From a virus: DNA of 64,000 nucleotides. The notes under the pieces are model-generated. The model saw nothing but the letters and a program-made list of their open reading frames with translations. It was not told the origin of the DNA and made no database searches. The number at the start of each line of letters is the position of its first letter. Position 1 is the stretch's first letter. Location: UHGV virus genome UHGV-0023958. The stretch is one strand, 5' to 3'. Below, in pieces: positions 3,523-64,000 of the stretch. The position numbers and the translations under genes are program-made.

Positions 3523-3921
3523 ATCTATTTCTGTGCGAATCATAAACAAAATCAAAAATTTAAAGATGAAGATTTTTGAATATGAAGACGAAGAACCAGA
3601 ATATGTAAACAGAAGGGCTGTTGCAATTTGCGATAGACACATTGAAAAATATCTTGCAAACGTTACACCTTATGAATCTGAAAGAAAAGAATTACGAGAA
3701 AATATTAAGTGGACTTGTGATAACTGCATGGAGAAATTAGAAAAACTTGGTTGGGAAGTTTATGGGCAATTATGAGTTTGAAGAATTTGTAAAAATTCTT
3801 AAGTGGGAAATACAAAAATATACCGTGAATCAAAAGATGAATGGAAAAGAGATAAATCCAGAAAACATTATTGATTTGATTGTCAAATGTGAAAATAAAG
3901 CAATAAAAAAATACTTTACAG

Positions 3922-4514: not shown

Positions 4515-4904
4515 ATGAAGAAAGAATATGGTTTCAGACACGCAGAATTCAATTGCGAGTATAGATATCCGATTATTTTTCATCCGATTCATAATTTCAA
4601 AGAATGGAAAGCTTATCGGTGGCGCAGAAAATATCTTTTAAAAAACGGTTTCGGACCAGAAGCATTTTGGGATACGGATCATTGGTTTGTTGATGTTATG
4701 CTTGAGATTTTAAAGAAACATTATGAATGGAGCAAAGAAAACCTGGATTCAAAAAATAATGAAGGTGTAGCAAATTTTCAAAAAGATCTTGCCCGTATGA
4801 TTGAAATTTTGGAATTTAAAAAAGATGAAAACGAAGCAGATGTGATTACTGACAGCGAATTTTTTAAATTACTTCAAAAGAGACTTCCTTTTTTATGGAA
4901 TTAG
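4515..4904 (+). CDS. hypothetical protein; the only gene I found that ends in TAG
   Basis: 129-codon ORF; stop TAG 4902-4904 abuts the left end of the IS element. Confidence 0.5.
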   Translation: MKKEYGFRHAEFNCEYRYPIIFHPIHNFKEWKAYRWRRKYLLKNGFGPEAFWDTDHWFVDVMLEILKKHYEWSKENLDSKNNEGVANFQKDLARMIEILEFKKDENEADVITDSEFFKLLQKRLPFLWN

Positions 4905-6235
4905 CGCAAGAAAATCCGTGACTTTAGTCGTGGGATGAATTGCGCGTAACAAGTTATGGAAGTAACTCGCGATAGAGAGTATGTTTACTCGATTCAATAT
5001 CACACAAAGAGGAGGTGAAGAATGTGGGAAAAGCTTATAAATATCGTATATATCCGAATGAAAAGCAGAAAGAGATAATAGCAAAGACATTTGGTTGTTG
5101 CCGTTTTGTATATAATAAGTATCTTGCGCAGAGAATTGAATTATATCAAACAAATAAATAGAGTTTGTCATACGTTAAGTGTGCAAAAGAAATATCTAAA
5201 TTAAAAGACGAACTTGAATGGCTTAAGGAAGTTGATTCCACGGCTCTTCAATCTTCCCTCAAAGATTTAGATAATACTTATCAGAAATTCTTTAAAGAAC
5301 ATACAGGATTTCCGAACTTCAAAAGTAAGAAAACGCACAGATATTCTTACAAATCTAGATATGTGAACGATAACATAAAATACCTCGGTAAATATATCAA
5401 ACTTCCAAAACTCGGATTGGTAAAAACGAAAAACAAGTTAATACCACAAGGAAGAATAGTAAATGTAACGATTTCTCAAGAACCAAGTGGTAAATATTAT
5501 GTTTCATTGTGTTGTGTAGATGTTGAAATAAAAGCATTACCAACAACTGGTAACACAATAGGCATAGATTTAGGAATTAAAGAATTTTGCATAACAAGTG
5601 ACGGAAAACTTGTGAACAATCCGAAATATCTTAAAAACTCGTTAAATAAACTTACAAAGTTGCAAAGAGAATTATCTCGAAAACCAAAAGATAGTTCTAA
5701 TCGTAACAAAGCAAGAATAAAAGTAGCAAGATTATACGAGAAAATTTCAAACCAGCGTAAAGACTTTTTACAAAAACTCTCAACCAATATCATTCGAGAA
5801 AACGATGTAATTTGCATTGAAGATTTGCAGGTGAAGAATATGGTTAAAAATCATAAGCTTGCACAGGCAATTAACGATGTTTCTTGGTCGGAATTTGTTC
5901 GAGAGTTAGAATATAAAGCACATTGGCATGGTAAGTTAGTTATTAAGGTTGATAGATTTTTTCCTAGTTCTCAAACTTGTAGTATTTGTGGATATAAGAA
6001 CGAGGAAACAAAAGATCTAAAAGTAAGAGAATGGGATTGTCCAGTTTGTCATACTCATCACGACAGAGATGTGAACGCTGCGATAAACATTCTTAATGAA
6101 GGACTAAAGCAATTAGCTTAAATATAAGAACCGCAGGAACTGTGGGGATAGCTTGGTAAATATTCTGACAGTAGTTGGAAGTTCCCAAGAATCTCACGGC
6201 TTTTAGCCGTGAGAGGTCCAAGGGATTAAAATAAT
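4905..6235 (+). mobile_element. IS200/IS605-family TnpB-only insertion element (no tnpA) with subterminal right-end hairpin
   Basis: TnpB ORF plus perfect 8-bp hairpin CTCACGGC-TTTTA-GCCGTGAG at 6193-6213 downstream of the stop, typical right-end/omegaRNA region; left boundary approximate. Confidence 0.55.
5024..6121 (+). CDS. tnpB: TnpB (IS605 OrfB, RuvC-like plus zinc finger) carrying one in-frame TAG at 5159-5161
   Basis: N-terminus [31 protein letters not shown] from GTG 5024, in frame through TAG into the 5165 ORF; RuvC motifs [27 protein letters not shown]; C-terminal CSICG..CPVCH zinc finger. Confidence 0.75.
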
Positions 6236-12360: not shown

Positions 12361-13582
12361 GTATGCTGAGCTTTGTCCGATTGATTATAATGACGGTTGG
12401 GCGGTCCATTATTTGACAGAAACAGATGTATACAAATTTAATATGGGTATGGTGATGTTTTTAAAATATCCTAATCTTTGGGGAAAATACATCTTTAAAT
12501 GCAGAACTAAGGATGTAAAATTTAATAAAGGAATTCTTTCTGAAATCAATCGTCAAATCGACCATTTGTGCTCTTTAAGATTCACAGAACCAGAATTACA
12601 GTATCTTAAAACAATTCGGTATCTTGGTGGCGCATATCCAGAATATATTGAATATTTGAGATTATGGCATCCAATTCGTGATTATGTAAAGACTTGGATC
12701 GAAGATGATATGCTTCATATTGAAGTAGACGGACCTATGTTCCAATGTATGCAATTTGAAATTTATCTTTTGGAAATTGTGGCACAATCATATAATTATA
12801 TCAATGGCAATATCGAAGAAATTGAAGCATCTGGTATCAAAAAACTCGATGAAAAATTAGAAAAGTTTAAGAATGGCACTTATACTTTTAACTTCGCTGA
12901 ATTTGGCGCGAGAAGAAGAGCTACTGCTCGTATGCAGGATATTGCCGTAGATAAATGTCTGCAAACAGGTCATTGTGTCGGAACTTCCAATGTATATCTT
13001 GCAATGGTTTATGGGGTGACTCCGATCGGAACTTATGCTCACGAGTATGTTCAAATGTTCCAAGGTATTGATGGAATTCAGCTTGCCTATACAAATAAAT
13101 ACGCTCTTAAAGAATGGTTTGAAGTATTTAATGGTGATAATGGTACGGCCTTAACTGATACTTTGTCTACTGATTTATTCCTTATGGATTTTGATAAGCT
13201 TCAAGCAACTATGTACACTGGTGTAAGACATGACTCTGGAGATCCGTATGTTTGGGGAGATAAAATTATTGAGCATTATAAAAAACTTGGAATTGATCCC
13301 AAAACAAAAACATTGTTGTTTAGTGATTCGTTAGATTTTAATAAGGCACAAGAAATCTACAATTATTTTAAAGACAAGTCCAAAGTTTCGTTTGGCATCG
13401 GAACATATATTTCAAATGATACGTGTATTGCTCCTTTGAATATTGTTGTCAAACTTCAATATGTAAATAATAAACCAGTTGCAAAACTTTCCGATGTGTC
13501 TGGTAAAACTATGTGTCAAGATAAAAATTATATTGAATATTTAAAAAATGCTGTTGAATACAGACTTGAAAGTGGGAGATAA
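12347..13582 (+). CDS. pncB: nicotinate phosphoribosyltransferase (PncB-like; NadV-like not excluded)
   Basis: N-terminal TETDVYKFNM (PRTase TDxYK motif), GTYAHEYVQMFQ (GTxAH), 411 aa. Confidence 0.65.
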   Translation: MNKNKYAELCPIDYNDGWAVHYLTETDVYKFNMGMVMFLKYPNLWGKYIFKCRTKDVKFNKGILSEINRQIDHLCSLRFTEPELQYLKTIRYLGGAYPEYIEYLRLWHPIRDYVKTWIEDDMLHIEVDGPMFQCMQFEIYLLEIVAQSYNYINGNIEEIEASGIKKLDEKLEKFKNGTYTFNFAEFGARRRATARMQDIAVDKCLQTGHCVGTSNVYLAMVYGVTPIGTYAHEYVQMFQGIDGIQLAYTNKYALKEWFEVFNGDNGTALTDTLSTDLFLMDFDKLQATMYTGVRHDSGDPYVWGDKIIEHYKKLGIDPKTKTLLFSDSLDFNKAQEIYNYFKDKSKVSFGIGTYISNDTCIAPLNIVVKLQYVNNKPVAKLSDVSGKTMCQDKNYIEYLKNAVEYRLESGR

Positions 13583-13588
13583 AGTATT

Positions 13589-14146
13589 ATGAATGTTAAT
13601 ATTATAATTGATATGCAAAACGATTTTATCGAAGGTTCTCTTAAAAATGATTCTGCAAAGGCAATTGTTCCAAAAATTTGCGAATTTATCAAAAAGAGAA
13701 AAGATGAGAATTTCGTAAGTACATTAGATACTCATCTTGACGAAAAATATCTTCAAACTCAAGAAGGTAAGATGCTTCCGATTAAGCATTGTATATATAA
13801 AACTTGGGGACATGAACTGAATTCATCAATACAAAATGTTTTATATGAGAATAATGTAAGTATAAAATATGCTTATAAGGAAACATTTGGAATGAATCCA
13901 GAAGGTTGGGAAAATATATTTAACAACACAGATTATAAAGAGAAAATTCATTTCTTTTTAACTGGCGTATGCACAGATATTTGCGTCGTATCAAATGCTA
14001 TGATTTTGAAATCTTTGTTCCCAGAAAATGAAATTACTGTATATTCTGATTTATGCGCTGGAACGACGCCAGAAAATCATCAAAAAGCACTTTGTGTTAT
14101 GCAAAGTTGCCAAATTAAGGTAGAGAAATTCTTTGATAATGTATAA
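13589..14146 (+). CDS. pncA: nicotinamidase, isochorismatase family (PncA)
   Basis: IDMQNDF and GVCTDICV cysteine-hydrolase motifs. Confidence 0.65.
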   Translation: MNVNIIIDMQNDFIEGSLKNDSAKAIVPKICEFIKKRKDENFVSTLDTHLDEKYLQTQEGKMLPIKHCIYKTWGHELNSSIQNVLYENNVSIKYAYKETFGMNPEGWENIFNNTDYKEKIHFFLTGVCTDICVVSNAMILKSLFPENEITVYSDLCAGTTPENHQKALCVMQSCQIKVEKFFDNV

Positions 14147-14669
14147 ATATAATTCTGGTTTGATAGTTGGAAGATTCCAATTCTTTCATAATGGACATAA
14201 ATCAATTCTTGATAAAGCATTAAAAGAATGTGAAATTGTAATTGTTTGTATTGGTAGTGTCGAAGAAAAACGAAATTATCGCAATCCATTTAATTATGAA
14301 GAACGTAAAAAATTTATTTTATCGGCTTATTCAAGAAAGGAAAGAAAAAGAATTAAATTTATTCCACTTGTATCTATAGGCGTTGGAGATAATCCTGTTT
14401 GGGGTAATTATATTTTAAATTCTTGCAAGTTTTATCATAATATTTCGCCCGAAGTATATTATACTGGAATGGAATCTGATAGAAATAATTGGTTTCCAAA
14501 TCAAAATATTAAAAACGTTTATATTGATAGAAATATAATTAATATTAGCGCAACAGAACTCAGAGAGGCTTTATTTATTAAAAAGGATTTATCTATAATT
14601 TTTCAGTATATGAATTATAAAGTTGCAAAAGGAATAATTAAAAAATGCAAAAATTATTTAAACATTTAA
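14133..14669 (+). CDS. nicotinamide/nicotinate mononucleotide adenylyltransferase (NadM-like)
   Basis: GRFQFFHNGH matches the GRFQPFHxGH motif of NadM/NadR NMNATs. Confidence 0.65.
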   Translation: MIMYKYNSGLIVGRFQFFHNGHKSILDKALKECEIVIVCIGSVEEKRNYRNPFNYEERKKFILSAYSRKERKRIKFIPLVSIGVGDNPVWGNYILNSCKFYHNISPEVYYTGMESDRNNWFPNQNIKNVYIDRNIINISATELREALFIKKDLSIIFQYMNYKVAKGIIKKCKNYLNI

Positions 14670-25885: not shown

Positions 25886-26716
25886 ATGAACGAACCAATT
25901 ATAATGTATGGAAAAGAAGTTGCGGATAATATGTTGAAAGATTTTAAGGCGAAAGAAGGTTCTTGTCTTTATATCTTTTCAAATCAGGCGGATCCAGCAA
26001 GTAAAGTATACGTAAATAATAAAAAGAAGAAATGCGAAGAACTCGGCGTTCCTTGTATTGTTTATGATATTTCAAACGCAACAATGGAAGAAATCGAAAG
26101 GTATTTTTCAGACATTGTAGTTTTGAATTGGGATAAATTTTATAATCCTTATATCATTGTTCAGCAGCCAATCCCAAAACACCTTAAGCAGTACGAGAGT
26201 AAATTTGAAGCCGTTATGAAAGCACTTTCAAGTTCCGACATCGATGCTTTCGACGGAGATTTATCGACAGAGTTTAAAACGCCAGCAACGCCGCTTGGAA
26301 TTATCAAAATGCTCGATTATTATGTAGGTCTTGATAAACTCGATGGGATGAACGTGGTTGTTATCGGTCGTTCTAAAATCGTTGGCAAACCGATGGCTGA
26401 TTTGCTTTTGAAATATAATTGTACCGTAACTATTTGCCACTCGCACACGAAAGATTTATCGCTTTATACGAAGAACGCAGATTTAATTGTAAGCGCAGTT
26501 GGTAAAGCAAAATTTCTTACAGCAGATTATATCGGAGAGAACAAACCGATTGTTGTTGATGTGGGAATTAATCGCGATGAAAACGGAAAGCTTTGCGGCG
26601 ATGTTGATTTTGAAGCAGTTGCACCGAAATGTTCGTTTATCAGTCCAGTACCAAAAGGCGTTGGAGTTTTGACGGTTGCAAGTTTGGTATATAAGATGGG
26701 AGAAAATATTGAATGA
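25886..26716 (+). CDS. folD: bifunctional methylene-THF dehydrogenase/cyclohydrolase FolD
   Basis: VVVIGRSKIVGKPMADLL, CTVTICHSHT, VVDVGINR, GDVDF, PVPKGVGVLTVASLV: classic FolD blocks. Confidence 0.75.
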   Translation: MNEPIIMYGKEVADNMLKDFKAKEGSCLYIFSNQADPASKVYVNNKKKKCEELGVPCIVYDISNATMEEIERYFSDIVVLNWDKFYNPYIIVQQPIPKHLKQYESKFEAVMKALSSSDIDAFDGDLSTEFKTPATPLGIIKMLDYYVGLDKLDGMNVVVIGRSKIVGKPMADLLLKYNCTVTICHSHTKDLSLYTKNADLIVSAVGKAKFLTADYIGENKPIVVDVGINRDENGKLCGDVDFEAVAPKCSFISPVPKGVGVLTVASLVYKMGENIE

Positions 26717-28313: not shown

Positions 28314-28526
28314 GCCGAGCGAACGGAATATCTTGATTCATCTGATATGGACTTTTATGAAAAGACAAGAACCGTTGCGATTAGAAGGACGTTATCGTGG
28401 AGTTAAAACCGCTGTAGAGCCTACGCCGATACTCGATTATTGTACACCATCTTTCAAAGGATATTATACCAGCGCAAAAAAAATTACAATATTTCAAAAA
28501 AAATTTTGAAAAGTCTATAAAATCGT

Positions 28527-28555
28527 TTGACAAAATGATTTTAATATGATATAAT
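28527..28555 (+). promoter_or_regulatory. sigma70-type promoter firing into an ORF-free region
   Basis: TTGACA(28527-28532) -17- TATAAT(28550-28555); no ORF or SD for about 450 bp downstream. Confidence 0.55.
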
Positions 28556-28561
28556 ATACAC

Positions 28562-29010
28562 GTAATCAGTTGAAGACAAACACCTCCCTAAACATCAACC
28601 GATACTGATTGCAACATTTGTACCTCAAATAATAAGATGTAGTACGGAGCTAACCACTCCGTATGATGAGATGAGAATGACTTGACCTCCGCGTGGTTCA
28701 TCTTGGGTAATTCTAACAAAGTCAAAAATCGCGACAAAAAAATACGGACAGCTAATAGTGCTTACTTTTGCTTATAGCAACAAACTGTTAATTTGTATTA
28801 GTGCTATAATTCAGTCCTTAAAAATGTCGCAGCTAGCGGAACTTACTTTTTATAAATAGACGATGAATATATTTGATAGCTCCGCGACATAATTATTTTT
28901 TTTGAATCGAGATTTTCAGCTAGTCGAGCTTACTTTAATATAAACTGTTCCTATAAACGGATAATATAGCGCGACAATTACGAAAATCTTGATTCTTTTT
29001 TTTATTTTCG
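28562..29010 (+). ncRNA. candidate promoter-driven non-coding RNA region with three direct repeat units
   Basis: ORF-free; repeats CAGCTA(A/G)NNGNGCTTACTTT at about 28752, 28830 and 28918, each preceded by a CGCGACA-like motif; hairpin TACGGAG..CTCCGTA; anti-SD-like CACCTCC. Confidence 0.3.
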
Positions 29011-32240: not shown

Positions 32241-32256
32241 ATAAAGCATAAAACAG

Positions 32257-32289
32257 GAAACGCTCTTAATCGGGCGTTTCTTTTATTTT
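32257..32289 (+). terminator. rho-independent terminator
   Basis: GAAACGC-tcttaatcgg-GCGTTTC then TTTTATTTT. Confidence 0.6.
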
Positions 32290-32634
32290 GCTCTGTAACA
32301 CGTCAAATTTAAACGATATACACAAATCGATAACTTATACCACTCAAACATTCTTGTGCAAATTTGGGGCTATTCTGTCAACGTAGGAAGGTTTTAAGCT
32401 AACAAGCGAGCAAGCTAATTATCTTAATCTCCCACTCTTTATTATAATCGCTTAAAATACTCTTAAATTGGGTGATATGACATTGGTCGATGGGATTTAT
32501 CGAGCGAAGCAAAGATATGCAAAATAAGTGCTATTTTGTAAGCCAGGATTGATTATAACATATATTCTTTATATATAACAAAATAAATGTTAAATGATGA
32601 GAAAAATATTTTTAGTGTATTTGCGTGAAATTAG

Positions 32635-32663
32635 TTGACATTTCTACTTTTATATGATATAAT
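32635..32663 (+). promoter_or_regulatory. sigma70-type promoter
   Basis: TTGACA(32635-32640) -17- TATAAT(32658-32663). Confidence 0.6.
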
Positions 32664-32687
32664 TGTATTATAAAAGAGGTATTAATT

Positions 32688-32939
32688 ATGGAACTCAAAG
32701 ATGCAAAGAAACTTATCAAAAAGATCGGTGTAAAATCCTGGATTGAATCAGGTACGAATGTTGTTATGGTTGGCGATAAACTTATTGATCCGACCGAATC
32801 TTTCTCAAGACTTGATTATTACACAAAACACCTGGGGATAAAGTTCTGCGGCGAAGATGAGCTTACTGTTCCGTGTGGTGAAATATGTCTTAATAACGAC
32901 ATGTTAATTTTTTATAATGTAATTACTGAGATATTGTGA
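32688..32939 (+). CDS. hypothetical protein
   Basis: SD AAAGAGGT then ATG. Confidence 0.4.
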   Translation: MELKDAKKLIKKIGVKSWIESGTNVVMVGDKLIDPTESFSRLDYYTKHLGIKFCGEDELTVPCGEICLNNDMLIFYNVITEIL

Positions 32940-32963
32940 AAATATTCGTTATCGCTCATTATT

Positions 32964-32998
32964 AATCCAGTTGGTGAGTGTTACTACCCAACTGGATT
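32964..32998 (+). terminator. terminator hairpin ending the left arm
   Basis: AATCCAGTTGG..CCAACTGGATT, 11-bp stem. Confidence 0.5.
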
Positions 32999-33239
32999 GT
33001 CTTAAAGGTTAATTTAAAGGTCTAAAGATACTGACTAAAATAAGTATAAAAAGGTAAAGGCAGTTGGTTTAACGAAGTAACAAGAAAATATTGTAACTTG
33101 GATTGAGAAAGATGTAATTTATAGAAGATAGTTTTATATAGGTTAAAATGGCTGAAACCCTTTATTTTAAAGGGATTGAAGCGTTTTTAGAAGTATAAAA
33201 ATTCTATAATATAGAAATTGTTTTTCAACAATTTCCGCG

Positions 33240-33540
33240 CAAGCGCAGAATAATTATTCTATATTTTTATATTTGCTGTGTGGTTTTAGCACGAAAAATA
33301 CCGGTGTATGTGAATTTATGATGTTTGTGTTGGTTTATGGTTGATTATTGTGTACTTGGCTTATATGAGTTTATAGGTGTTTGGTGTGAATTTATATGAT
33401 TATATATGGCTTATAGTTGATTTATATAGTTTTATGATGTGTGTTTATAATATATTTTATAATAGTTTTATAATAATTTAGTGATTTTATATGGTTTTAT
33501 GATATGTTCTCTTTTTCTTTATAAAAAAAAGAGAATCAAA
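33240..33540. repeat. AT/GT-rich iteron-like degenerate direct repeats (TTTATATG / TTTATGAT units)
   Basis: repeated gtgaatttat..gat, ggcttata..gatttata.., ttttatgatgtg units; flanked by palindromes at 33150-33260. Confidence 0.45.
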
Positions 33541-33685
33541 AACACCAAATTTTACCCTAAATCCAAAATTTCCAACTTTATCCCAACCCCGTCGGTTTAA
33601 GTTCAAACTAAAACCAAAATAATGTATAAAAAAATATCCGCCGCCCGAAAGGGCGAAGGATATTTGTCATATTTGTCTTTGAATA

Positions 33686-33762
33686 AAAAGTTGTCAAACG
33701 TTCCGGTATATAAGTGTTCTATTACTATATTATTATATACCCAGTAGTTTGACAACTTTTTT
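33686..33762. terminator. bidirectional terminator, 14-bp inverted repeat with T-runs on both sides
   Basis: AAAAGTTGTCAAAC..GTTTGACAACTTTTTT. Confidence 0.5.
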
Positions 33763-33772
33763 GTCTTAAATC

Positions 33773-35233
33773 TTAAAAATCTAAATCCTCAATCTCGTCT
33801 TTGTATAAAATTCCATCTTCAGTCTTCTCTAATAAATGTTTCAATTTCTTACCATTTGACATACCGCGTTCGAAAGCGTAACTACAAACCAGTTCGTTTA
33901 AACTCATGGTTGTATGTTGTAAGAATTCTTGAATTTTTACAAAAGACTCATCGGCATAAACCGTATCTGCTTTTGTAACATAAGCGTCATTTTTATAATC
34001 TTCTATCTCTTGAGCTTTTTCAAGCTTATTAAGATATTCTTTTGTTTGATCGTAAAAATAATCATTTATATTACGATTTTGAAGCATAAGACATTTTCGT
34101 TCTTGAGATTTACAATATTGGAAAAACTGTTCCTCTTCAACAGCTGATTTAACATCTTCTTTAATCGCTTTATTTAAAGAATCATTATGTTTTGATAAAG
34201 TTCTTTGTTTATGAGCTTCTTTGAATTTACCTTGAATAAATTTTCTTAAATCAGAATCGCTAATCATTCGTTTGGCTATGTCTTCACATTGTTGATCTTG
34301 TGAGACAATTACAATATAACTTGATAATCCGATTAATCCGAGATGTTTAAGAATTAATCTATCCAAATCATAATAGAATTGATCTCTGTTTTCTTGATTG
34401 AGTTCTGTTACATACTTAACGTTATATTTTTCCAGAAGTTTCTTTTGAATAAGAAGATATTTTCTCAGCTCTTCTTTTTCTTCAAGCATCACAAAGTTAT
34501 AATCTTTCTTAATCTTATTATCATAAACAGATCTGATTTTTCCGCTCTCCAAAGCTTCTAAAACCTTTTGTTGAGATTCTGGCGTAAGCTTATAAGCACC
34601 ATATCTTTCAGTTTTGAAAATAGCATGTTTATTTGTAAGCTTTGTGCAAGCAGATTGGAAAGCATGATCAAAAGACGAAGTTGTGTTTCGATAAAAGAAA
34701 TCAAGATTAATAACCGCGTTTTCACTATGTTCATCTTGGTATTCTTCGTAATTATTAAATCTTACGTCAATTGTAGAAAGTAATTGATTTCTGCTATCTT
34801 CGTCATAAGGTTTCCAATGGCTGTTCGCCATTCCGAGTAACTCATACCAATAACGTTTTGTTAAGGCAACTGGATTACATTCGGCTTGTGAAAGTATAAC
34901 GCTTAAAGTTAAAGCAACATAATCGGATAAAGGAATTTTTTTGTTGATTTGTTTTGTAATCGGAATTTCATTTGTTTTGATTTTGGTGAACTCTACAGAA
35001 TTACCACTTTTGATACAGTCGGTGTTTTTTAATATTAAGTCTTTGGTTTGCATCATCGCACCTCCTGTACAATATTTCAGTCCTAAATCTTCAAAAACTT
35101 CTTTCCAATTCTTGTAACGATAATTGATTTTGAGATTTGATAAATCAATCTTTCTCAATACTTGAGGATCGCTGATTTTTTGTTGAATAATGTAGTTGTC
35201 AATACGTTTTTGAATATCAGTCTACTACGTCAT
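33773..35233 (-). CDS. hypothetical protein whose codons 3 and 4 are both TAG
   Basis: minus-strand promoter TTGACA -17- TATAAT (35284-35312), SD AAAGGAG, ATG at 35233-35231, then ACG TAG TAG ACT in frame with the 461-codon ORF listed in the track. Confidence 0.55.
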
Positions 35234-35283
35234 GATAAACACTCCTTTTGGGCATAGTACACCCATTTAGATTTTATATAAAT

Positions 35284-35312
35284 ATTATAACACAAAATCA
35301 GAAAAATGTCAA
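35284..35312 (-). promoter_or_regulatory. sigma70-type promoter (minus strand)
   Basis: on the minus strand, TTGACA -17- TATAAT. Confidence 0.6.
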
Positions 35313-35501
35313 CTGATTTTGCGTGAAAAACAAAAGATTTTTAAATATTTCTTCCTTTAAGGGAAAATCGCTACAAGCCTTTAAAATAAAGGACTTTTTT
35401 GAAAGTTTAGGAGATTTGTATTTTTAAACACTAACTTATCCGCCGCCCGAACACCGATAAAAATAAATTCAAATAAATTCATAAAAACCCCTTAAAAATA
35501 C

Positions 35502-35530
35502 TTGACAAATTCAAATAAATATAGTATAAT
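35502..35530 (+). promoter_or_regulatory. sigma70-type promoter
   Basis: TTGACA(35502-35507) -17- TATAAT(35525-35530). Confidence 0.6.
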
Positions 35531-35577
35531 TAATATATAAATATTGGGCGGTCCGCCGCCCGAAAGGAGAAAAAAAA

Positions 35578-36611: not shown

Positions 36612-36620
36612 AATAATTAT

Positions 36621-36650
36621 AAGGGCGGCGGATAGCCGCCCTTTTTCTTT
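36621..36650 (+). terminator. rho-independent terminator
   Basis: AAGGGCGGC-ggata-GCCGCCCTT then TTTTTCTTT. Confidence 0.65.
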
Positions 36651-36867
36651 GTTTATTATCCGCCGCCCAAGGACGGCTTTAAATAAGCCTACATTGCGTA
36701 TCTTATCTTACCTGATAGATTATACCAGCAAATCGAAACGTACGAAATTAGACGATGTTTTGTAAGCCAAGGGTGATTATAATATCTTATGCGGGCGGCG
36801 GCTTAAAAAAATAATCGGTCAGCTCGAAAATTCTTTAAAAAATATTTTAAAAACATATCAAAATCAG

Positions 36868-36896
36868 TTGACTTTTTCCAAGAAATATGTTATACT
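36868..36896 (+). promoter_or_regulatory. sigma70-type promoter firing into an ORF-poor structured region
   Basis: TTGACT(36868-36873) -17- TATACT(36891-36896). Confidence 0.55.
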
Positions 36897-36902
36897 ATAC
36901 GT

Positions 36903-37421
36903 GTCGAAAGGTTGAGAGAGAAATCTCAAGATATTCTCATTGAATCCCCCATAAAACAACTACAAAATTAAATCAACCTTTCGACCATCATAGCTTATAG
37001 AAGAGAGGGATGAATCGATCCACACGTTCATAACAATCCTCCTAAAATTTTACATCCATTAAGTTTGATTTCTCCCTCTCTTAAATTTATCTACAGTGCC
37101 GTGCAGGAGCGTTTGCGATTCGTTCTTTGTTTGGTCTATTCATATTTGTTACTCCTTGGAAGACAGTCGGTCGAAAGATCGGCTGTTTTCTTGTTATATA
37201 TAAACAAACCGACGGTCAACCGTTTTTATCAATGGTTCAAGGGCGGCCTTCAACCCATCTTAGCGCGGCGCGGCGCGTAAATCCTCGCATAATAATCCCT
37301 CGCGTATCTTACTATTTGTATAGCGCAACTTTGGGGTTCGATGCGCTTGGGTGTTATTATATCCTTTAAAGAGTTTGTGAAGTTCTAAGGTTTGGCGGAT
37401 AAGATTATTCTCCTATCCGCC
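36903..37421 (+). ncRNA. candidate structured non-coding transcript
   Basis: starts at a 13-bp long-range inverted repeat GTCGAAAGGTTGA(36903-36915)/TCAACCTTTCGAC(36973-36985); second helix AAGAGAGGGA(37001-37010)/TCCCTCTCTT(37073-37082); ends near hairpin GGCGGATAAG..TATCCGCC (37393-37421); no convincing plus-strand ORF. Confidence 0.3.
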
Positions 37422-37433
37422 GCCCGTCAACTG

Positions 37434-37664
37434 CTAGTTAAGTATGATAACTTCTTGATATCCATCAATCATAAACGTCAAGATTCTTGCCTCCCCTATT
37501 TCAATTATATGAGTAGTTGGATCATTGAGAATTTCTTCTGCAATAATCTCTGCTTCGTATTCGCGCGCTTCTTTTCCGACAACGCCACGAATTTCGTTAA
37601 TCGTTTCTCCTGCTTCTTTACAAAACAGGTAAACACACCAACCGATAAGAATTAAAAGTATCAT
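37434..37664 (-). CDS. hypothetical small membrane protein, last ORF of the minus-strand block
   Basis: ORF track; hydrophobic N-terminus. Confidence 0.35.
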   Translation of the reverse strand: MILLILIGWCVYLFCKEAGETINEIRGVVGKEAREYEAEIIAEEILNDPTTHIIEIGEARILTFMIDGYQEVIILN

Positions 37665-53518: not shown

Positions 53519-56329
53519 TTATTCATAAACAATTTCTCCGTCTTCGTTTATTAAGAAACTTTGCGCCTCTTTTGAAATAAGCATAAGTTTATACTTTCTT
53601 CCAAGGAATTCTTCGCCGTCTTCACATTCAATTGGCACGTATGTTTGTTTTTGTTCGATACAGTCGAGTATGTCATCACCAAGTATCTGCCAGGCAAAAT
53701 CCCAATTGAATTTCGTATATGATTGCGATAAAGCTTTAATATATGTCAACGTTTCCATCGTGGTAAGTTCGAGCGTCATCAAATCATTTTGAATTTCTTC
53801 TTTGATGATGTCGAGATAACCAAATCTTATGTCTTTAAAATCTTCATCGTCAACATCGAAATAAATGCTGTTAATAAGAGTGATTGCTTTTTTATTGCAG
53901 TATTTACGATACATATCGCGGAACTTTTGAAGAATATCTGGAATTATGATATAAGAATTTAAATCGTAATATGGAAGCATGCTTGTGCAGTTTTTATTAT
54001 ATTTAATATCAAAATCGATAGATTCGATATCACGACATAATAAATTCATCGTACAGTTTGTATTGATAAGTGGAAGAAACTTATGATATTTTTTTACAAA
54101 ATCATTCTCTTCTTTTGTTTTATTCTCTTTTATAAGAAGTTTTTTAAGTTTCTTTCCGAACATACATTTTGATGTTTCGTTATACGTATTTTCGTATTTC
54201 TTATATTTTTCGTTTAATTCTGGATATAAGTATCTAAAGAAATAAGGTTTTTTGGAAATAACGAGTGAATTATGATAATATTTTTCTTTTCTTTGCTCTT
54301 CTGTATCATCTTTGTCGATTTTCCAGATTTTAAGCCATTCGTCCTTCGGAGGACCTTTGGCTTCAACGCCTTTAATTCTGTCAATTTCCTGACCGTTGAT
54401 TTCTCGAAGAAGTTTTATGCGAAGCAGAAGCTCTTCCCGTTGCTTTTTTTGCTCTGGACGCTGGAACATCGGTAACATTGCTTCAATAATCGTTGAATAA
54501 TTACTGTAAGTTCCAACTTTTGTACCGAACCCACGAATATCTGTTTCTATGAAGTTTCTATGACAAATTTTGTGAGAAGGTGCCGGTTGTTTTTTATATG
54601 TGATAGGATTTGTATAATCTTTCATCGAACCTTTTAAAAATATCGGATTATTTGTGCTCATACAAATATCACCGTCAAAATCACTGTCTGAGTGTCGGAG
54701 TGTACTTAAATCATATATTGAATAAACAATCCCGCTTTCAATCCATTTGTACCATTTTGTTGTTTCTTCATTATCAAACAATTTGCAATGATTTATCTCG
54801 TGTTTATCAAGAAGTGGAGAGCGACAGAGAACTATTTCATCGCCAATATTTGCGCGATTTTTCCAGAAATTCGAATAAAAATGCTCACCGGGTAACACTC
54901 CGACGGGTGGCAATCCTAACGCGCTTTGACACTGTGCTATCGGATCGGAAATCATAAACGAATAATTTCCTTTAACCCATATTTTTCCAATTTTCGATTT
55001 ATTGATTGATTCAACTATGTTTTTGTAAATTTTTCTTTGGACATAAGAATCTTTTAAAAATTCTGGATTTTTTACAACCGCTTTCATAGCAAGGTTTTGC
55101 GCTCTTGTGTATACGTCAGAATATTCAATTTCCATATCTTGATTGAACCCACCGAGCGAATATAACATAGCATATAAATCATCTCCGCTACAAACTTTCT
55201 GAAGCCAATCGATGGTAGGTTGAATTAATTCTTTAACATCTTGTTCTTTTATATTTAAAACTTGAATATATTGATAATTTGCAAGAACCCATTCGTCATC
55301 ATATTTTTTGTTGTATCTAGATACACCCCATCCGATGTTATATTTAGTGGCATATGAATCAAAATCTTCCCAACTTGAATAAGCTTTGTATTCTTTAAAT
55401 TGACTTTCTGAAATCAAACAGTCTATATCTTCTATTTTATGTGGTATTCCCCATCTATCATAAATAACAGATATATTATACTCAGCTGCATACGCTTTAA
55501 AATCGAACGGAACGAGATTTCCTTTGATAAACACGGAGCGAACAACGTACGAACTGGCAACATAATCAAGCCCCATTTCCTCAGACCATTTCATTGCCAT
55601 TTCTGGAGAAACAAGCCCCTGTCCGTCACAGCTATTCATTGTTACGTCTTGGACTCTTTCCTCTACTGCCTTTTTCCCATCTTCTGTGTTTATAATCCAA
55701 TCGATTTTTTGATCTTTCAGTGTTGTTTCAAAATCTTTGATTATACAAACACGTGGTTTCGAAACCCACATTATCGAAGATGTTGAAAGAGAGAAATACG
55801 CAGACAGTTTGGCAATATTTGTTTCTTCGAGACGATTATTCAAATCGCACATCAAACGCGTAAATAATTCTTCGTAAATGCGCTCCGAACAGAATTGTAC
55901 CGTATTGTGTCTGATTTGTCCTGCACTGGCACTAAAACGAACATATCTTACACCGTTTAAATAAAACCCTGCTTTTGCAAGCCTTCTATATTCCGATTTT
56001 TTATTTACGGTAACAAGAACAAAATCTTTAACAAATAACTTATTTAAAATTGCATACCAGAATATTCTCGCATCTTTTGCTCTACCTTCTTTCTTTGCAC
56101 GTCTCATCGATCCACGAAGAAATTCTATTTCTTTAAATATCTCATGATGATTTCGATTATCGCCATTGATAAAACGAGCTTGTTGAAAAGCGATGTTATC
56201 TCCGAGTGAAACAAGATTTCCGTCCAAAGCAGCCTGTCTAGCATCGTATGATGGTATATCGAGGTTGTTTTCACAAATAAACTTTGAAGACAACTTTATA
56301 ATTTGATATAAAACTTGTTCGCGAGCCAT
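53519..56329 (-). CDS. putative YonO-like / two-barrel single-subunit RNA polymerase
   Basis: 936-aa protein with HSDSDFDGD (plus coords 54668-54682), matching the DxDGD metal-binding motif (NADFDGD in beta-prime; DxDGD in YonO/QDE-1-type RNAPs); translationally coupled TAATG with the upstream kinase. Confidence 0.5.
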   Translation of the reverse strand: MAREQVLYQIIKLSSKFICENNLDIPSYDARQAALDGNLVSLGDNIAFQQARFINGDNRNHHEIFKEIEFLRGSMRRAKKEGRAKDARIFWYAILNKLFVKDFVLVTVNKKSEYRRLAKAGFYLNGVRYVRFSASAGQIRHNTVQFCSERIYEELFTRLMCDLNNRLEETNIAKLSAYFSLSTSSIMWVSKPRVCIIKDFETTLKDQKIDWIINTEDGKKAVEERVQDVTMNSCDGQGLVSPEMAMKWSEEMGLDYVASSYVVRSVFIKGNLVPFDFKAYAAEYNISVIYDRWGIPHKIEDIDCLISESQFKEYKAYSSWEDFDSYATKYNIGWGVSRYNKKYDDEWVLANYQYIQVLNIKEQDVKELIQPTIDWLQKVCSGDDLYAMLYSLGGFNQDMEIEYSDVYTRAQNLAMKAVVKNPEFLKDSYVQRKIYKNIVESINKSKIGKIWVKGNYSFMISDPIAQCQSALGLPPVGVLPGEHFYSNFWKNRANIGDEIVLCRSPLLDKHEINHCKLFDNEETTKWYKWIESGIVYSIYDLSTLRHSDSDFDGDICMSTNNPIFLKGSMKDYTNPITYKKQPAPSHKICHRNFIETDIRGFGTKVGTYSNYSTIIEAMLPMFQRPEQKKQREELLLRIKLLREINGQEIDRIKGVEAKGPPKDEWLKIWKIDKDDTEEQRKEKYYHNSLVISKKPYFFRYLYPELNEKYKKYENTYNETSKCMFGKKLKKLLIKENKTKEENDFVKKYHKFLPLINTNCTMNLLCRDIESIDFDIKYNKNCTSMLPYYDLNSYIIIPDILQKFRDMYRKYCNKKAITLINSIYFDVDDEDFKDIRFGYLDIIKEEIQNDLMTLELTTMETLTYIKALSQSYTKFNWDFAWQILGDDILDCIEQKQTYVPIECEDGEEFLGRKYKLMLISKEAQSFLINEDGEIVYE

Positions 56330-57570: not shown

Positions 57571-58251
57571 CTATTTTCGACGTATATTGTAAAATATTTT
57601 CACAATTTTTATTTTTATTTATTGACACATGTATATACGCGTGCGTACGCGCGTTTTTATTATATTATTATATTTATTATATATTATTATAAATATCTTA
57701 TATATTATAATATTTTTTAATTTATTTTAGATTCCCCACCCAAAGAAAAACCCACCCAATAATTCCTTCGAAAAATTTTCGAAGTTCATATTTCCAAATC
57801 CAAAAACAAAAATAGAATTGAAATCAAAATTAGAAATATGAAAATAAGATAATCATTCATTACATTCTGCCCATAATATAGATTATATTTTAAATTATTA
57901 TAATCACGATTATCTTTATTCACAGACACATTACTTAAAGTTTAAGTAATTCCTCCTCCCGTCTTTTTTATTTGAGGTATAGTTTGGGAACCACGGTCCT
58001 CTAACGGCAATTATTCATTAGCCGAGCGAATATCTCTTGTCAGGCTCGCAACACCAATTAGTTTTGTATTCGGGACCTATATAAGCAAACCGATACTTGT
58101 GAAAGGGAAGATAAACATTTTTGCTACCCTTGATCAACGTGGACCTATTTAGTTTGTGATTATTATAACATATATCTAAAAATAAGTCAAGCGATTTTGT
58201 ACTAGTTTCAGGAAATTTTTTAAATATTTTTTTAAAATCATTTGAATTAAC

Positions 58252-58280
58252 TTGACAAATATTTAATAATATGTTATAAT
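58252..58280 (+). promoter_or_regulatory. sigma70-type promoter heading the right arm
   Basis: TTGACA(58252-58257) -17- TATAAT(58275-58280); SD AAAGGAGG then ATG 58308. Confidence 0.6.
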
Positions 58281-58307
58281 ATATTATGAATAAAGGAGGT
58301 TTTCTTT

Positions 58308-59760: not shown

Positions 59761-59836
59761 GCTTTCATGGCTCAATTGGTAGAGCATTTGATTTGTAATC
59801 AAAGGATTCTCGGTTCAAGTCCGAGTGGAAGCTCCA
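59761..59836 (+). tRNA. tRNA-Thr (anticodon UGU), CCA encoded
   Basis: cloverleaf: acceptor GCTTTCA/TGGAAGC, D-stem GCTC/GAGC, anticodon stem TTTGA/TCAAA with loop TTTGTAA, T-arm CTCGG-TTCAAGT-CCGAG, discriminator T then CCA. Confidence 0.7.
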
Positions 59837-59890: not shown

Positions 59891-61108
59891 ATGATTGAAG
59901 AAAAATTTCAAATGTTAGACGGCGAGAATACCGATGAATACACAATTCGTATTTGTTCAATGCGTGAAGACGAGAATTTAACTTGGCAGGAAGTTGCTGA
60001 TATAATCAACGAAGAAACAGATAGAAGTTATTCTGAGAAAAAGTATCGCACTGATTATAAGCGTTTTTGCGAAGGCATGAATAAAGGTTATGAAATTGCG
60101 AAAGAGGAAAGTGATAATTCTTCTTTGTCGCAAGAAGAAATCACTGTTAAGCTTCGAGAATTCGAAAAAGCAAAAATCAAAATGCGCGACGAGCGTATTG
60201 ATTATATGCGGATTATTCGAGAGGAAGCGCGTAAAGAATCTTTTGTTGATTTGGTTCGTCGTGTAATTCAAGAAGAAGTTAAGCCATACGATAACGGTGT
60301 TTATATTCTTCCAGAAGAAACGTACGATGACGATATGATTGTTTGTTTGAGTGATTTACACACTGGAATGGTGTGTGATAATTACTGGAACAAATTTAAT
60401 ACCGATATTTTAAAGCAAAGACTCGATAGATATTTGGTTGAAATATTAAAAATTCAAAAATTGCACAAGTGCAAAAATTGTTATATTGCACTTGGTGGCG
60501 ATAATATTAGTGGTTTAATTCATGTTAATATGCGCTTGCAAAATAATGAAGATGTTATTAGACAAGTGAAAATTGCTTCTTTACTTATTGGCGATTTTAT
60601 TAAAGCACTCGATGATTCTAATTTGTTTGAAAGAATTCAGGTAAATAGTGTTGCAGGAAATCACTCAAGAATTTCTCCGAACAAACAAGATCATTTAAAA
60701 GGCGAAGAACTCGACGATTTAATTCCTTTTTATTTGAATGTTATGTTTATGAACAGACCAAATGTAAAAGTGTATGAAGATTGTTCGATTGATTCTACTA
60801 TAGATAGTATTGTAACACGCGCGGGAAGATTGTTCTATATAACCCACGGAGATAAAGACTCGGAAAAGGGTGTTGCCTCACGACTTACAATGATGTTGGG
60901 AAGAAAACCTGACGGTGTAATTATGGGACATAGACATCATAACGCGTATAATACTATCGATAATGTAAAAATTATACAAAACGGCAGTTTTGAAGGCGTT
61001 GATGACCATTGTATCAATATGCGTATTTCTGGTTCTCCAGAACAAGTCGTATTCCTTACAAACGCAGACAGAGTTGTTAAATGTTTGTATGATATAAATT
61101 TGGGCTAA
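59891..61108 (+). CDS. calcineurin-like metallophosphoesterase (Mre11/SbcD-like nuclease or phosphatase)
   Basis: ordered motifs LSDLHTG, ALGGDNISG, AGNHSRIS, MGHRHH. Confidence 0.4.
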   Translation: MIEEKFQMLDGENTDEYTIRICSMREDENLTWQEVADIINEETDRSYSEKKYRTDYKRFCEGMNKGYEIAKEESDNSSLSQEEITVKLREFEKAKIKMRDERIDYMRIIREEARKESFVDLVRRVIQEEVKPYDNGVYILPEETYDDDMIVCLSDLHTGMVCDNYWNKFNTDILKQRLDRYLVEILKIQKLHKCKNCYIALGGDNISGLIHVNMRLQNNEDVIRQVKIASLLIGDFIKALDDSNLFERIQVNSVAGNHSRISPNKQDHLKGEELDDLIPFYLNVMFMNRPNVKVYEDCSIDSTIDSIVTRAGRLFYITHGDKDSEKGVASRLTMMLGRKPDGVIMGHRHHNAYNTIDNVKIIQNGSFEGVDDHCINMRISGSPEQVVFLTNADRVVKCLYDINLG

Positions 61109-61172
61109 TAACCTCAAATAACCCCTCTTTATGAGGGGTTATAATTTTAATATATTAAAAGGTGGATAGAAG

Positions 61173-62453
61173 ATGATTTTTAAAAAAACACCAGTAGATA
61201 AAAAGTATGATGCTGCTGGCGATGATGAAGATGGTTTATCTTCTGAAAAATACCCTCCTCTTGGGAATTTTAACACCGTAAGACAACAAGGCGGTTGTTT
61301 TGGGTGTGGGGCAATACGAAAAATCTCATCTTATCCCATCGTTCATCCAAAAAGCGGCTGGGGTTTGATGGATAAAAACGGCAAAAAACACTTTGTGTTT
61401 TGTGAAAATTGTTTTGCAAAGTTAATAGATCAATATACCGAAGAGGCGCATGGAAATAAATATAAAGCTTTATATCGTATGTGTATGTATACAGGTTATT
61501 ATTACGATGATAAGCTTGCACACAGGGTTATAGAAGAAGAACATAAATATGACGATAACACTCCAGTTCCAAAATCCTATCACTGGGGCTTGCTTTATAA
61601 TAAAGCAGTTCGCGAAGATTTGATACTTTCTGATAAGACATTTTACGATTCCGATAATATTATGTTTGAGGAAGTTGTAAAATATCATAATCAACACAGC
61701 GTTGAAGATTTAATGTCTGACGAAGATAAAAACAATAGAATTACAATTTTGTCAGTCTTTCACTGTGATCCGTTTGAAGACGAAGAATTATTGGATAGAG
61801 TTAAATTACAAAACGACCTTGTAACAATGATTGACGATTCAATGGCGGACGATATGGTTCGTCAAAAGGCGGCAATCGAAATCGTTCGTTCGTTTCATCG
61901 TATCGATAAAATTAGTAAAGCTTTACAAGAATTACAAACAGATAAAGATACAATGCTCGAACATACAAAAGAGATTAAAGAGTTGTCTGAAACTAAACAA
62001 AAAGAAACAAGCTTGGTAACTCAATTCTCAAAAGACCACGGGTTTGCCGAAAAATACGCCACTGCAAAATCAAGAGGTTCTGGTTCACTTGGTTATATTA
62101 TAAAAGAAATGAACGAGAAAGGATATGATAGGGGTGCTGTCAATAAATTTGATATAGACACGGCAGCGGCAATGAAACAGGTTGCGGATATAAGTTCTTC
62201 ATCAATGGCGAAACAAGTTGCGCTTAGTGATTCTGATAAAGCTGCTATGATAAAAGATCAATCGATAATGATTAATCGAATGAGAGAAACGATGGAAAAA
62301 CAAGCTGAAGAATTAAGACTACTTCGTGAAAAACATTTGAAATCTGAATTATTAGACGAGTATAAAAAAGATTTGAAAGATAAAGGTTTAAATGAAGAAC
62401 AAATAGATAGAGCTGTTAAAGAAGAATTAGATAGAAGGATACCAGTTGTATAA
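61173..62453 (+). CDS. hypothetical zinc-ribbon/coiled-coil protein; possible terminase small subunit by position
   Basis: immediately upstream of and coupled (TAATG) to terL; N-terminal CFGCG..CENCF, long charged C-terminal helix. Confidence 0.3.
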   Translation: MIFKKTPVDKKYDAAGDDEDGLSSEKYPPLGNFNTVRQQGGCFGCGAIRKISSYPIVHPKSGWGLMDKNGKKHFVFCENCFAKLIDQYTEEAHGNKYKALYRMCMYTGYYYDDKLAHRVIEEEHKYDDNTPVPKSYHWGLLYNKAVREDLILSDKTFYDSDNIMFEEVVKYHNQHSVEDLMSDEDKNNRITILSVFHCDPFEDEELLDRVKLQNDLVTMIDDSMADDMVRQKAAIEIVRSFHRIDKISKALQELQTDKDTMLEHTKEIKELSETKQKETSLVTQFSKDHGFAEKYATAKSRGSGSLGYIIKEMNEKGYDRGAVNKFDIDTAAAMKQVADISSSSMAKQVALSDSDKAAMIKDQSIMINRMRETMEKQAEELRLLREKHLKSELLDEYKKDLKDKGLNEEQIDRAVKEELDRRIPVV

Positions 62454-64000
62454 TGATAAGTGTATATAAGAATTCTACCGAAATAGAAGTAACTACTCGT
62501 CGTGCTGAAATTTTTGAAAAATATAATAAAGTAATTCAATACGGAAGAAGAAACCCAGTGTGGTTTATAGAAGAGATTTTTAAAGTTCCACTTTTGGATT
62601 ATCAAAAATATATTATAATGAACTCCTGGACTAAATAGCGTGCGATATGGGTATGTTCTCGTAACGCGGGTAAGTCCATGATGGGTGCATTATATACTAT
62701 GACAAAAGCATTATTGTTTCCGTCTTTTGAATGTTGGTTTATGTCTTTGAGTGCAAATCAGGCACAGACAACATTTAAAAAATTGGAAGATATTGCTAAA
62801 AAGAATATACCCTCACTTATTGGTTCAAGTGATGTTTTTATGAATGAAACCGTAAAATTACAAGCAAATTCTGACGGTTTCACACATCAAAAATCAAACC
62901 ATGAAGTAAAACTTTATAACGGTTCTCATATTACAACGTTGGCTGGTAAACCAGAAACAACCGTTGGTATGCGAAGCCATTTGAGCGTATATGATGAAGC
63001 TGGTAAAATTTCTGCTGAATATTATGGTTTAACAGAACCATTTGCAACGCAAGATACCAACTTCAAAACTGGTGAAAAAATTGATTTGAACGTTATTCCA
63101 AAAATGATTCCAACACAACTTCTTTATATGTCTTCTGCGGAAGATACCTCTTCATATTTATGGGATATTTATAAAGAAGGCGCGAAGAGAATGATGATGG
63201 GTGATAACACTTGGTTTGTCGCAGATATAAATTGTGAAATTCCGTTACACCCTACAAAAGGCGGTAAGCCGTATGCTCCACTGTTAAATCAACAGGTTGT
63301 TGATGACGCTATGCGTGTAAACGAATATAAAGCATTGAGAGAATATTATAATATATTTGATACTACTGGTGGTAACGATGCTGTTATCAATAGAACTATT
63401 ATTATGAGAAACGAAGAAGAGTATCTTCCTGTTTTTGCTAACGATAACACGGTTACGCCAGGAGACAGAATATATGCTTTGTGTTTCGATCCTGCTTTGA
63501 TGTCGGATAACTCAATTATCTTGATTGGAGAACTGACGAAAAAAGACGGAGTTGGTTGGACTGGAAGAATAGTAAATTGCATCAACCTTATTGAATCTTT
63601 AAATAACGGAGAGAAGAAAATTTTGACAGCAGTTGAACAAGTCGAGCGTTTAAAGAAATTGATTATTGATTATAATGGAAACGCACCAGAGTATAAGAAT
63701 TTAACAATATTTATAGATCCTGGTTCTGGTGGTGGCGGACATATATATTCAGATATTCTTATGCAGAATTTTGTTGATGAATATGGAATTAGACACTTTG
63801 GTTTAATCGACCTGGAAGATGAGAAATCTGCTTTGGAACAAAACAAATTCCCACTCGCTGTAAGAGATGTTTTACATTTGTATACTGCAACAAAATATAA
63901 AAATGAGTTTTACAGTGCGGTAACAACAATGTGCGAACAGGATTTGGTTAAATTTCCTTACACAGATTCGTTCGGTTCTAAAAACTTTACTATAAACGGA
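62453..64000 (+). CDS. terL: terminase large subunit (partial, runs off window) with one in-frame TAG at 62636-62638
   Basis: 61-codon N-terminal ORF ends at TAG; same frame continues RAIWVCSRNAGKSMMGALY (Walker A) .. HLSVYDEAGKI (Walker B) to the window end. Confidence 0.7.

Follow-up and report, generated by a model that had tools for sequence, protein, structure and literature searches.

The virus genome UHGV-0023958 raises the question of how a phage expresses the large subunit of its terminase (TerL) when the gene carries an in-frame TAG codon just ahead of the ATP-binding loop. The stretch analyzed here, referred to as the window, comprises 64,000 nt of this genome and ends within the TerL gene. 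We confirm that the TAG is genuine, neither an error nor the mark of a pseudogene. In-frame TAG codons occur in the late genes only, and the early genes are written in the standard code, with a single mobile-element gene excepted. Very probably, the late genes of this SPbeta-like metagenome phage (~160 kb, 33% GC) use a code-15-like dialect in which TAG is read as glutamine (Gln) by a phage-encoded tRNA with a CUA anticodon, tRNA(CUA).

The TerL gene begins with an ATG that overlaps the TAA of the preceding gene (TAATG), and in-frame translation from this ATG runs through 516 codons to the end of the window with a single stop, the TAG at codon 62 (TAG-62; positions are collected in Table 1). 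A preliminary description, made from the letters alone, had noted that this TAG ends an open reading frame (ORF; 62453-62638), that the same frame continues into the ATPase core with no new start before the P-loop, and that the TAG must be decoded as an amino acid, through either a code-15-like reassignment or a phage suppressor tRNA. These claims are borne out by homology across the TAG, by the position of the next ATG, and by three checks given below on the residue at the TAG column, the coding density and the tRNA. The residues 5' of the TAG (..LLDYQKYIIMNSWTK, also given as ..VPLLDYQKYIIMNSWTK) include the DYQ of the adenine-binding (YQ) motif, and those 3' of it (RAIWVCSRNAGKS) hold Walker A, with ..SVYDEAG.. 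following later. The first ATG in frame past the TAG, M76, stands right behind the P-loop, so a restart there drops both the YQ motif and Walker A.

Homology to other terminases is continuous across the TAG. In tblastn searches, terminases of Bacillus phages (Stills, Slash, PBC4 and others) align unbroken over it (query 10-374 or 15-360), and the matches as a whole come from Bacillus, Clostridioides, Thomasclavelia and Microcystis phages at 23-27% identity. The PHROG family phrog_2, 'terminase large subunit', matches residues 23-433 (E = 1.6e-20); Pfam TerL_ATPase scores 17 bits, below its cut-off of 23.7. A search of the PDB with the single TerL sequence returned nothing relevant, and a family profile, built from 27 members, was required. 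This profile aligns with T4 gp17 (3EZK, 2O0H, 3CPE) without gaps over 'L-DYQ ... SR-x-x-GK[ST]', and in the ungapped alignment the TAG takes up exactly one residue position between the YQ motif and Walker A. The match to gp17 is very distant (E = 6e-4) and confined to the N-terminal ATPase segment, and gp17 has no in-frame stop; the YQ motif, Walker A (SRxxGK[ST]) and Walker B (xDE) nevertheless share its spacing. The motif names follow the established assignments for T4 gp17. Within the TerL family, DYQ (49-51, with D49 and Q51 invariant in the family alignment), SRNAGKS (69-75), YDE (180-182) and HDDRAY (565-570) are invariant or nearly so. The protein thus presents the YQ, Walker A and Walker B motifs in canonical order and spacing together with a C-terminal nuclease Asp motif, as in gp17-type TerL proteins.

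Were the TAG a true stop, TerL would be an amber pseudogene, or it would be made as a 61-amino-acid (aa) N-terminal fragment plus a 555-aa protein initiated at M76. Code-11 gene callers deliver exactly this pair (P0001, with 448 member sequences), but the 555-aa product is devoid of the YQ motif and the P-loop. The history of the codon argues in the same direction. The 426-aa protein encoded directly upstream of TerL is recorded in 87 blocks of a public assembly collection, and we compared ten contigs (90-160 kb) that stem from different ENA, Logan and JGI samples. They differ from the window by 0-82 mismatches over 2,828 nt, and TAG occupies TerL codon 62 in 10/10, one of them carrying a synonymous change four codons 5' of it. 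With IMG/VR contigs included, the codon is TAG in 19/19 locus copies diverging by 0-3%; it is kept across diverged strains while flanking synonymous sites vary. An assembly or sequencing artefact, which draws only on the prior that metagenome assemblies hold errors, has a negligible probability given that the identical codon recurs in assemblies made independently from different samples (ENA, Logan, JGI, IMG/VR). The preliminary description would have yielded to a frameshift, an alternative start or an assembly error; no frameshift is present, no alternative start is usable, and assembly error is excluded. Some public gene calls already use code 15 and report a 630-aa TerL (loci L004 and L005; L numbers denote fetched loci throughout).

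The window matches scaffold_91 of ENA ERZ28615470 (159,917 bp) at a constant offset of 2,237. An overlap of ~55 nt between the contig ends means that the genome is either circular or circularly permuted. Megablast of positions 61100-64000 against 50,697 phage records gave zero matches; the phage is neither a sequenced isolate nor a laboratory amber mutant.

We walked downstream via IMGVR_UViG_3300045988_176183, which is 97.3% identical to the window over a 3.3-kb overlap, and obtained a 60.6-kb composite of the late region. Under code 11 the composite contains 84 ORFs at a coverage of 0.892, 27 of them 'ending' in TAG. Under code 15 the number of ORFs falls to 54 and coverage rises to 0.953; these 54 ORFs contain 63 in-frame TAG codons and no in-frame TAA or TGA, and 0/54 terminate at TAG. 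Coverage of the window itself is near-identical under codes 11 and 15 (0.863 vs 0.864). The tape-measure gene runs as a single frame through 2,739 codons, 31 of which are TAG and none TAA or TGA, and its counterpart in a second strain has 2,998 codons with 30 TAG. The tail genes that follow it carry 7, 2, 4 and 1 TAG, a 273-aa gene near the end of the recoded block carries five, and a 640-aa gene is also recoded. Most late genes are sparsely recoded (0-2 TAG), and the tape-measure and tail genes densely. Together with the tRNA(CUA) that the lineage encodes, these 63 in-frame TAG codons, 31 of them in the tape measure, leave a true stop at TerL codon 62 with next to no probability, and we regard it as effectively refuted.

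The recoded block is contiguous and extends from TerL to the gene just past the suppressor tRNA. Recoding in this direction begins with TerL, as the two genes upstream of it, which encode a YonJ-like exonuclease and the 426-aa protein of unknown function, are free of in-frame TAG. The ~118 early ORFs of the window are free of in-frame TAG except for the gene of the transposon-associated protein TnpB, and the replication genes contain 0 TAG. The preliminary description had rightly singled out TAG-62; its wording is corrected in that TerL has no further TAG within the window and that one other window gene, TnpB, is recoded too. TAG is also rare as a terminator, ending 1-2 of ~120 window ORFs (2/120 when ORFs are called greedily, one of them being the TerL fragment), and accounts for 7-13% of terminators in more distant relatives with TerL proteins 33-57% identical. 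Several other candidates for recoded genes in the window were rejected as upstream extensions or non-coding read-through, namely window positions 3621-3944, 28381-28737 (minus strand) and 37260-37664 (minus strand), along with ~20 window ORFs that show a TAG near the 5' end under code 15.

The amino acid inserted at TAG was approached by mapping every TAG in the long code-15 ORFs of all loci to the homologous codon elsewhere by ungapped blastn. This gave 282 TAG columns, 145 of which are polymorphic. The alternatives to TAG are CAA (69 columns) and CAG (62), followed by GAG (12), TAT (11), AAA (9) and GAA (8). Strain-specific TAGs that are CAG in other strains occur in late genes (L003 13916, L002/L008 17909, L005/L007/L010 16435, L010 13425), and L005 has an additional one within TerL itself (11593). 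At the codon-62 column, the TerL family (573 matches, with full-length members at 40-59% identity) shows Q in several cases (WTKQT, WTTQK), and other members have E, K, R, T or N there. In three independent relatives with TerL ~50% identical (P0013, P0035, P0026), the DNA reads CAA at codon 62 and TerL contains zero TAG, so the recoding is peculiar to this lineage in a wider family that uses the standard code. The check on the TAG column that the preliminary description had proposed therefore points to Gln; CAA and CAG at the TAG columns and CAA in the TerL relatives make this the supported reading.

Decoding of TAG as another amino acid, such as pyrrolysine, Tyr, Glu or Lys, would agree with those columns in which TAG alternates with GAG, TAT or AAA, and with the lack of any closer kinship of tRNA(CUA) to the phage tRNA-Gln than to its other tRNAs. 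We consider it very unlikely, as CAA and CAG make up 131/232 alternative-codon observations, ~10x the next most frequent codon, and the TerL column adds CAA in its three relatives. ARAGORN labels the tRNA(CUA) 'Pyl', but it gives this label to any CUA tRNA. The cloverleaf of the tRNA is standard in that its D-loop holds GG, a T-psi-C loop is present and two bases separate the acceptor stem from the D stem, features in which tRNA-Pyl differs, and no ORF resembling PylS or PylBCD was seen among the large ORFs scanned.

The putative decoder of TAG as Gln is a 75-nt tRNA(CUA), UGGGGAAUAGCAUAACGGUAGUGCGGUGCUCUCUAAAAGCACUCUGUGUCGGUUCGAGCCCGACUUCCCCCGCCA, located at the 3' edge of the recoded block after the genes for NrdD and an N6/N4 DNA methyltransferase. 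ARAGORN detects it in every close relative covering the site (L043-L045, L047-L049, L066, L067-L077), including a 4.7-kb contig from another ENA sample (L066), and the Rfam tRNA model scores it at 52.8 bits. TerL with TAG-62 (L009) and tRNA(CUA) (L043) reside on one 94,146-bp contig. No suppressor tRNA was found by ARAGORN or Rfam in the window, where tRNA-Thr(UGU) is the only tRNA, nor in the first 50 kb downstream; we infer from the relatives that the window's own contig carries it as well. The cloverleaf is canonical, with U1 opposite C72, then G2 and G3, a discriminator G73 and an encoded CCA. The combination of U1, G2, G3 and G73 fits a bacterial tRNA-Gln and is no proof of one. A phage tRNA-Gln(UUG) sits in a tRNA cluster ~20 kb beyond tRNA(CUA).

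About 70 nt upstream of tRNA(CUA) lies a promoter with a 12/12 match to the sigma-A/sigma-70 type (TTGACA-17-TGnTATAAT, with an extended -10 element), and between it and the tRNA is a 20-bp palindrome, TGTCAAATCTAAATTTGACA; the two elements together lie at L049 13645-13742, ~52 kb downstream of TerL. Both are conserved across all strains examined, and the palindrome could be an operator. As to other translation genes, a six-frame translation of all fetched DNA, which leaves ~9 kb of the genome unseen, contained no GGQHVN-type motif of a release factor, and neither a release factor nor an aminoacyl-tRNA synthetase was found among the large ORFs scanned. Of the genes that the preliminary description had suggested looking for, the CUA suppressor tRNA is thus the one that was recovered.

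It is also conceivable that the host itself reads TAG as Gln and that the phage is only matching it, in which case the reassignment would be neither phage-driven nor stage-specific. A search of bacterial genomes identified no host, giving only matches at 33-50% identity in TerL from Paenibacillus prophages and from phage-size contigs binned into metagenome-assembled genomes, and this leaves some room for such a host. In-frame TAG is, however, confined to the late block, with the early window ORFs and replication genes free of it except for TnpB, and the phage encodes its own tRNA(CUA). To our knowledge, no bacterium with TAG as Gln has been described, which also counts against a recoded host. 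Standard-code hosts have been predicted for TAG-recoded phages (Borges et al., bioRxiv 10.1101/2021.08.26.457843). We regard a host with TAG as Gln as highly improbable.

A late-gene code in which a phage tRNA(CUA) reads TAG as Gln can be turned into a working model. The tRNA, transcribed from its own consensus sigma-A promoter, would read TAG after being charged with Gln, presumably by host enzymes, and would presumably compete with host release factor 1. Active TerL, tape-measure and tail proteins would then accumulate only once the suppressor is abundant; TerL in particular should be active only with read-through of codon 62, which separates the YQ motif from the P-loop. The code change would in this way add a translational condition to the expression of late genes for packaging, the tail and probably lysis. 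The near-absence of TAG terminators fits such a model because read-through of early genes would otherwise be costly. Such a tie between late-protein synthesis and a suppressor tRNA was put forward by Borges et al. (bioRxiv 10.1101/2021.08.26.457843) for other phages with a recoded TAG.

Four points weigh against this interpretation. The tRNA(CUA) is known from relatives that are ~97-100% identical and not from ERZ28615470 scaffold_91, the contig of the window itself. Recent duplication of the phage tRNA-Gln(UUG) was considered as its origin and rejected at 41/75 identity, no higher than to other tRNAs, so the Gln identity of tRNA(CUA) rests on the codon alignments and on generic features (U1, G73). 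A release factor or synthetase could be encoded in the ~9 kb of unseen genome. Lastly, at ~3% divergence the conservation of TAG-62 is in itself no proof of selection for a regulatory role and fits plain inheritance of the codon as well as selection as a gate.

That the recoding acts as a gate, as opposed to passive codon drift, with a repressor-controlled tRNA promoter licensing packaging, tail assembly and lysis at once, is a tentative proposal that we hold to be possible and rather doubtful. The TAG that is fixed in every strain is TAG-62 of TerL, at the start of the recoded block, and the single tRNA(CUA) lies at the opposite end. If the proposal were true, mobile-element nucleases (TnpB and a GIY-YIG endonuclease) would be licensed along with the late functions once the tRNA is released, and a code switch would be layered on top of a transcriptional early/late or lysis/lysogeny switch in an SPbeta-like, perhaps temperate phage that has a YonO-type RNA polymerase of its own.

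Late-gene recoding is already well documented in gut phages, and the present case does not change the understanding of its mechanism. Recoding of TAG to Gln in late genes with suppressor tRNAs has been described for crAss-like, Lak, Agate, Jade, Sapphire, Garnet, Amethyst and Topaz phages (Borges et al., bioRxiv 10.1101/2021.08.26.457843), and TAG-to-Gln recoding in gut phages has been validated by metaproteomics (Peters et al., PMC9523058). As in these phages, in-frame TAG is found mainly in structural and late genes and the standard code is kept in replication and early genes, TAG lines up with Gln, a phage tRNA(CUA) is present, TAG is rare as a terminator, GC content is low, and close strains differ in which codons are TAG. 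Agate phages offer two further parallels, a homing-endonuclease ORF in an intron-like insert with in-frame stops (here a GIY-YIG type with three TAGs) and a genome size of 154 +/- 27 kb, compared with ~147-160 kb here. In contrast to the recoded gut phages, the present phage has an SPbeta-like gene set (YonO-type RNA polymerase, YonJ, YonD, YonB), only one suppressor tRNA, which lies precisely where the single contiguous recoded block ends on its 3' side, no release factor 2 in the DNA seen (all but ~9 kb of the genome), and a recoding density that is sparse in most late genes and high in the tape-measure and tail genes.

A human-gut phage of siphovirus type, phAss-1 (proposed 'Phassvirus', ~136 kb), is likewise comparable (Babkin et al. 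2023, PMC10607447). In phAss-1, TAG interrupts the genes for TerL, the portal, the tail fibre and the tape measure (~3,150 aa), the suppressor Gln falls where other TerLs have Gln, and there are tRNA-Sup(CUA) genes with no dedicated aminoacyl-tRNA synthetase (PMC10607447). It differs in having 36 tRNAs with 2-3 suppressor copies and in recoding 28% of its ORFs, early-type genes included (PMC10607447). The megablast search of the 50,697 phage records detected no nucleotide similarity between phAss-1 and the TerL region analyzed here.

The SPbeta affiliation is based upon the single-subunit RNA polymerase of the YonO type in the window, a candidate late-gene transcriptase, and upon matches to the YonJ_N, YonD_N and YonB families near the genes for packaging and structure in the fetched loci. 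With SPbeta the phage shares these genes, a large genome (~135-160 kb) and a low GC content. It differs in that megablast of the TerL region detects no nucleotide similarity to any of the 50,697 phage records, and its TerL, which in tblastn matches other Bacillus phages, is ~25% identical to the nearest cultured-phage terminases. SPbeta itself uses the standard code. One relative (L007) has three ORFs (368, 177 and 550 aa) in place of the intact YonO-type polymerase gene, a pattern suggestive of a further insertion.

With this phage, an SPbeta-like lineage that carries a YonO-type RNA polymerase joins those that switch the meaning of TAG in late genes. Its layout is unusually clean, with one block, one edge tRNA under a host-type promoter and one invariant TAG before the P-loop, which makes it a convenient system for testing recoding as a timer of late expression. 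For annotation, the contig calls for translation table 15, at least in the late block; code 11 splits TerL, the tape measure, the tail genes and TnpB into fragments, as is the case in most public gene calls.

Table 1. Positions of TerL, its motifs and other features in the 64,000-nt window
Feature	Position	Strand	Remark
TerL gene, 5' part	62453..64000	+	Codons 1-516 of ~630; truncated by the window end
DYQ, adenine-binding (YQ) motif of the TerL ATPase	62597..62605	+	Upstream of the TAG
In-frame TAG, TerL codon 62	62636..62638	+	Probably read as Gln
Walker A / P-loop, SRNAGKS	62657..62677	+	Downstream of the TAG, ahead of M76 (next ATG in frame)
YDE of Walker B (VYDEAG)	62990..62998	+	Downstream of the TAG
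426-aa protein of unknown function	61173-62453	+	Directly upstream of TerL; no in-frame TAG
YonJ-like exonuclease gene	59891-61108	+	Upstream of TerL; no in-frame TAG
YonO-type single-subunit RNA polymerase	53519..56329	-	PF05183 (RdRP family) match, 2e-10
TnpB (IS605 OrfB-type) gene	5024..6121	+	GTG start, AGGAGG ribosome-binding site; second window gene spanning an in-frame TAG
In-frame TAG, TnpB codon 46	5159..5161	+	Also in the independent contig L065
ORF ending in TAG, the only clear case in the window	4515..4904	+	Read-through adds 13 codons before TAA; directly upstream of the TnpB element
Further ORF ending in TAG	37434-37664	-	Read-through adds ~58 codons

The recoded TnpB gene has the HTH_OrfB_IS605 domain (aa 1-45) before its TAG and the OrfB_IS605 (RuvC) and TNB zinc-ribbon domains after it, and all three exceed the gathering cut-off when TAG-46 is read as Q. 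It is a mobile-element nuclease written in the late-gene dialect of the phage. In the window strain, TerL itself is split between ..EKERRMH and DDRAY.. by a 1.48-kb insert past the window end (L002 ~12975-14457, where L002 12828 corresponds to window 64000). The insert divides the nuclease motif (MH/DDRAY) and encodes a GIY-YIG endonuclease with three in-frame TAGs, and many TerL homologues in the database are cut off there. The 1.48-kb insert gave no match to Rfam intron models and is therefore termed 'intron-like' only. In the replication module (L068 11014-12126 and 16454-19753), one ORF encodes a LAGLIDADG endonuclease, and a RecD2-like helicase shows a weak match to an intein-splicing domain. 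With TnpB, GIY-YIG, HNH, LAGLIDADG and a possible intein, the load of selfish elements is unusually high.

The tRNA complement shows several further peculiarities. The tRNA-Thr(UGU) of the window (59761-59836, plus strand), just upstream of the late genes, is intact. In L001 (~8494-8622) and L010 its anticodon loop holds a 129-nt insertion, and ARAGORN then calls no tRNA. The insertion itself matches the Rfam tRNA model (33.8 bits), with acceptor, D and T arms and an ACCA end, and has 66 nt in place of the anticodon arm. The tRNA cluster (L093-L103, ~3.5-5 kb after the matched gene) includes Asn, Trp, Gln-UUG, Ala, Val, Tyr and Leu; its content varies between near-identical strains, and some members have abnormal anticodon loops labelled 'tRNA-???' by ARAGORN. 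The phage also encodes an RNA-repair-type set consisting of an RlaP-like nucleotidyltransferase (window 6236-7051, plus strand), a Thg1-like protein ~3 kb upstream of the window start (L030 5927-6739) and a T4 Rnl1-type RNA ligase fused to a GIY-YIG domain (L096 18379-20271). These genes may serve as a tRNA repair toolkit in a phage dependent on its own tRNAs.

Five stretches of 0.4-1.5 kb in the otherwise tightly packed genome (window 28510-28988, 32241-33772, 35159-35543, 36612-37126 and 57693-58307) have no ORF of at least 55 aa under either code, and Rfam at gathering thresholds finds nothing in them. The early region includes auxiliary metabolic genes (window 12347-13582 and 25886-26716; L001 93-1361), the set comprising a nicotinate phosphoribosyltransferase, a FolD-like methylenetetrahydrofolate dehydrogenase/cyclohydrolase and a serine hydroxymethyltransferase.

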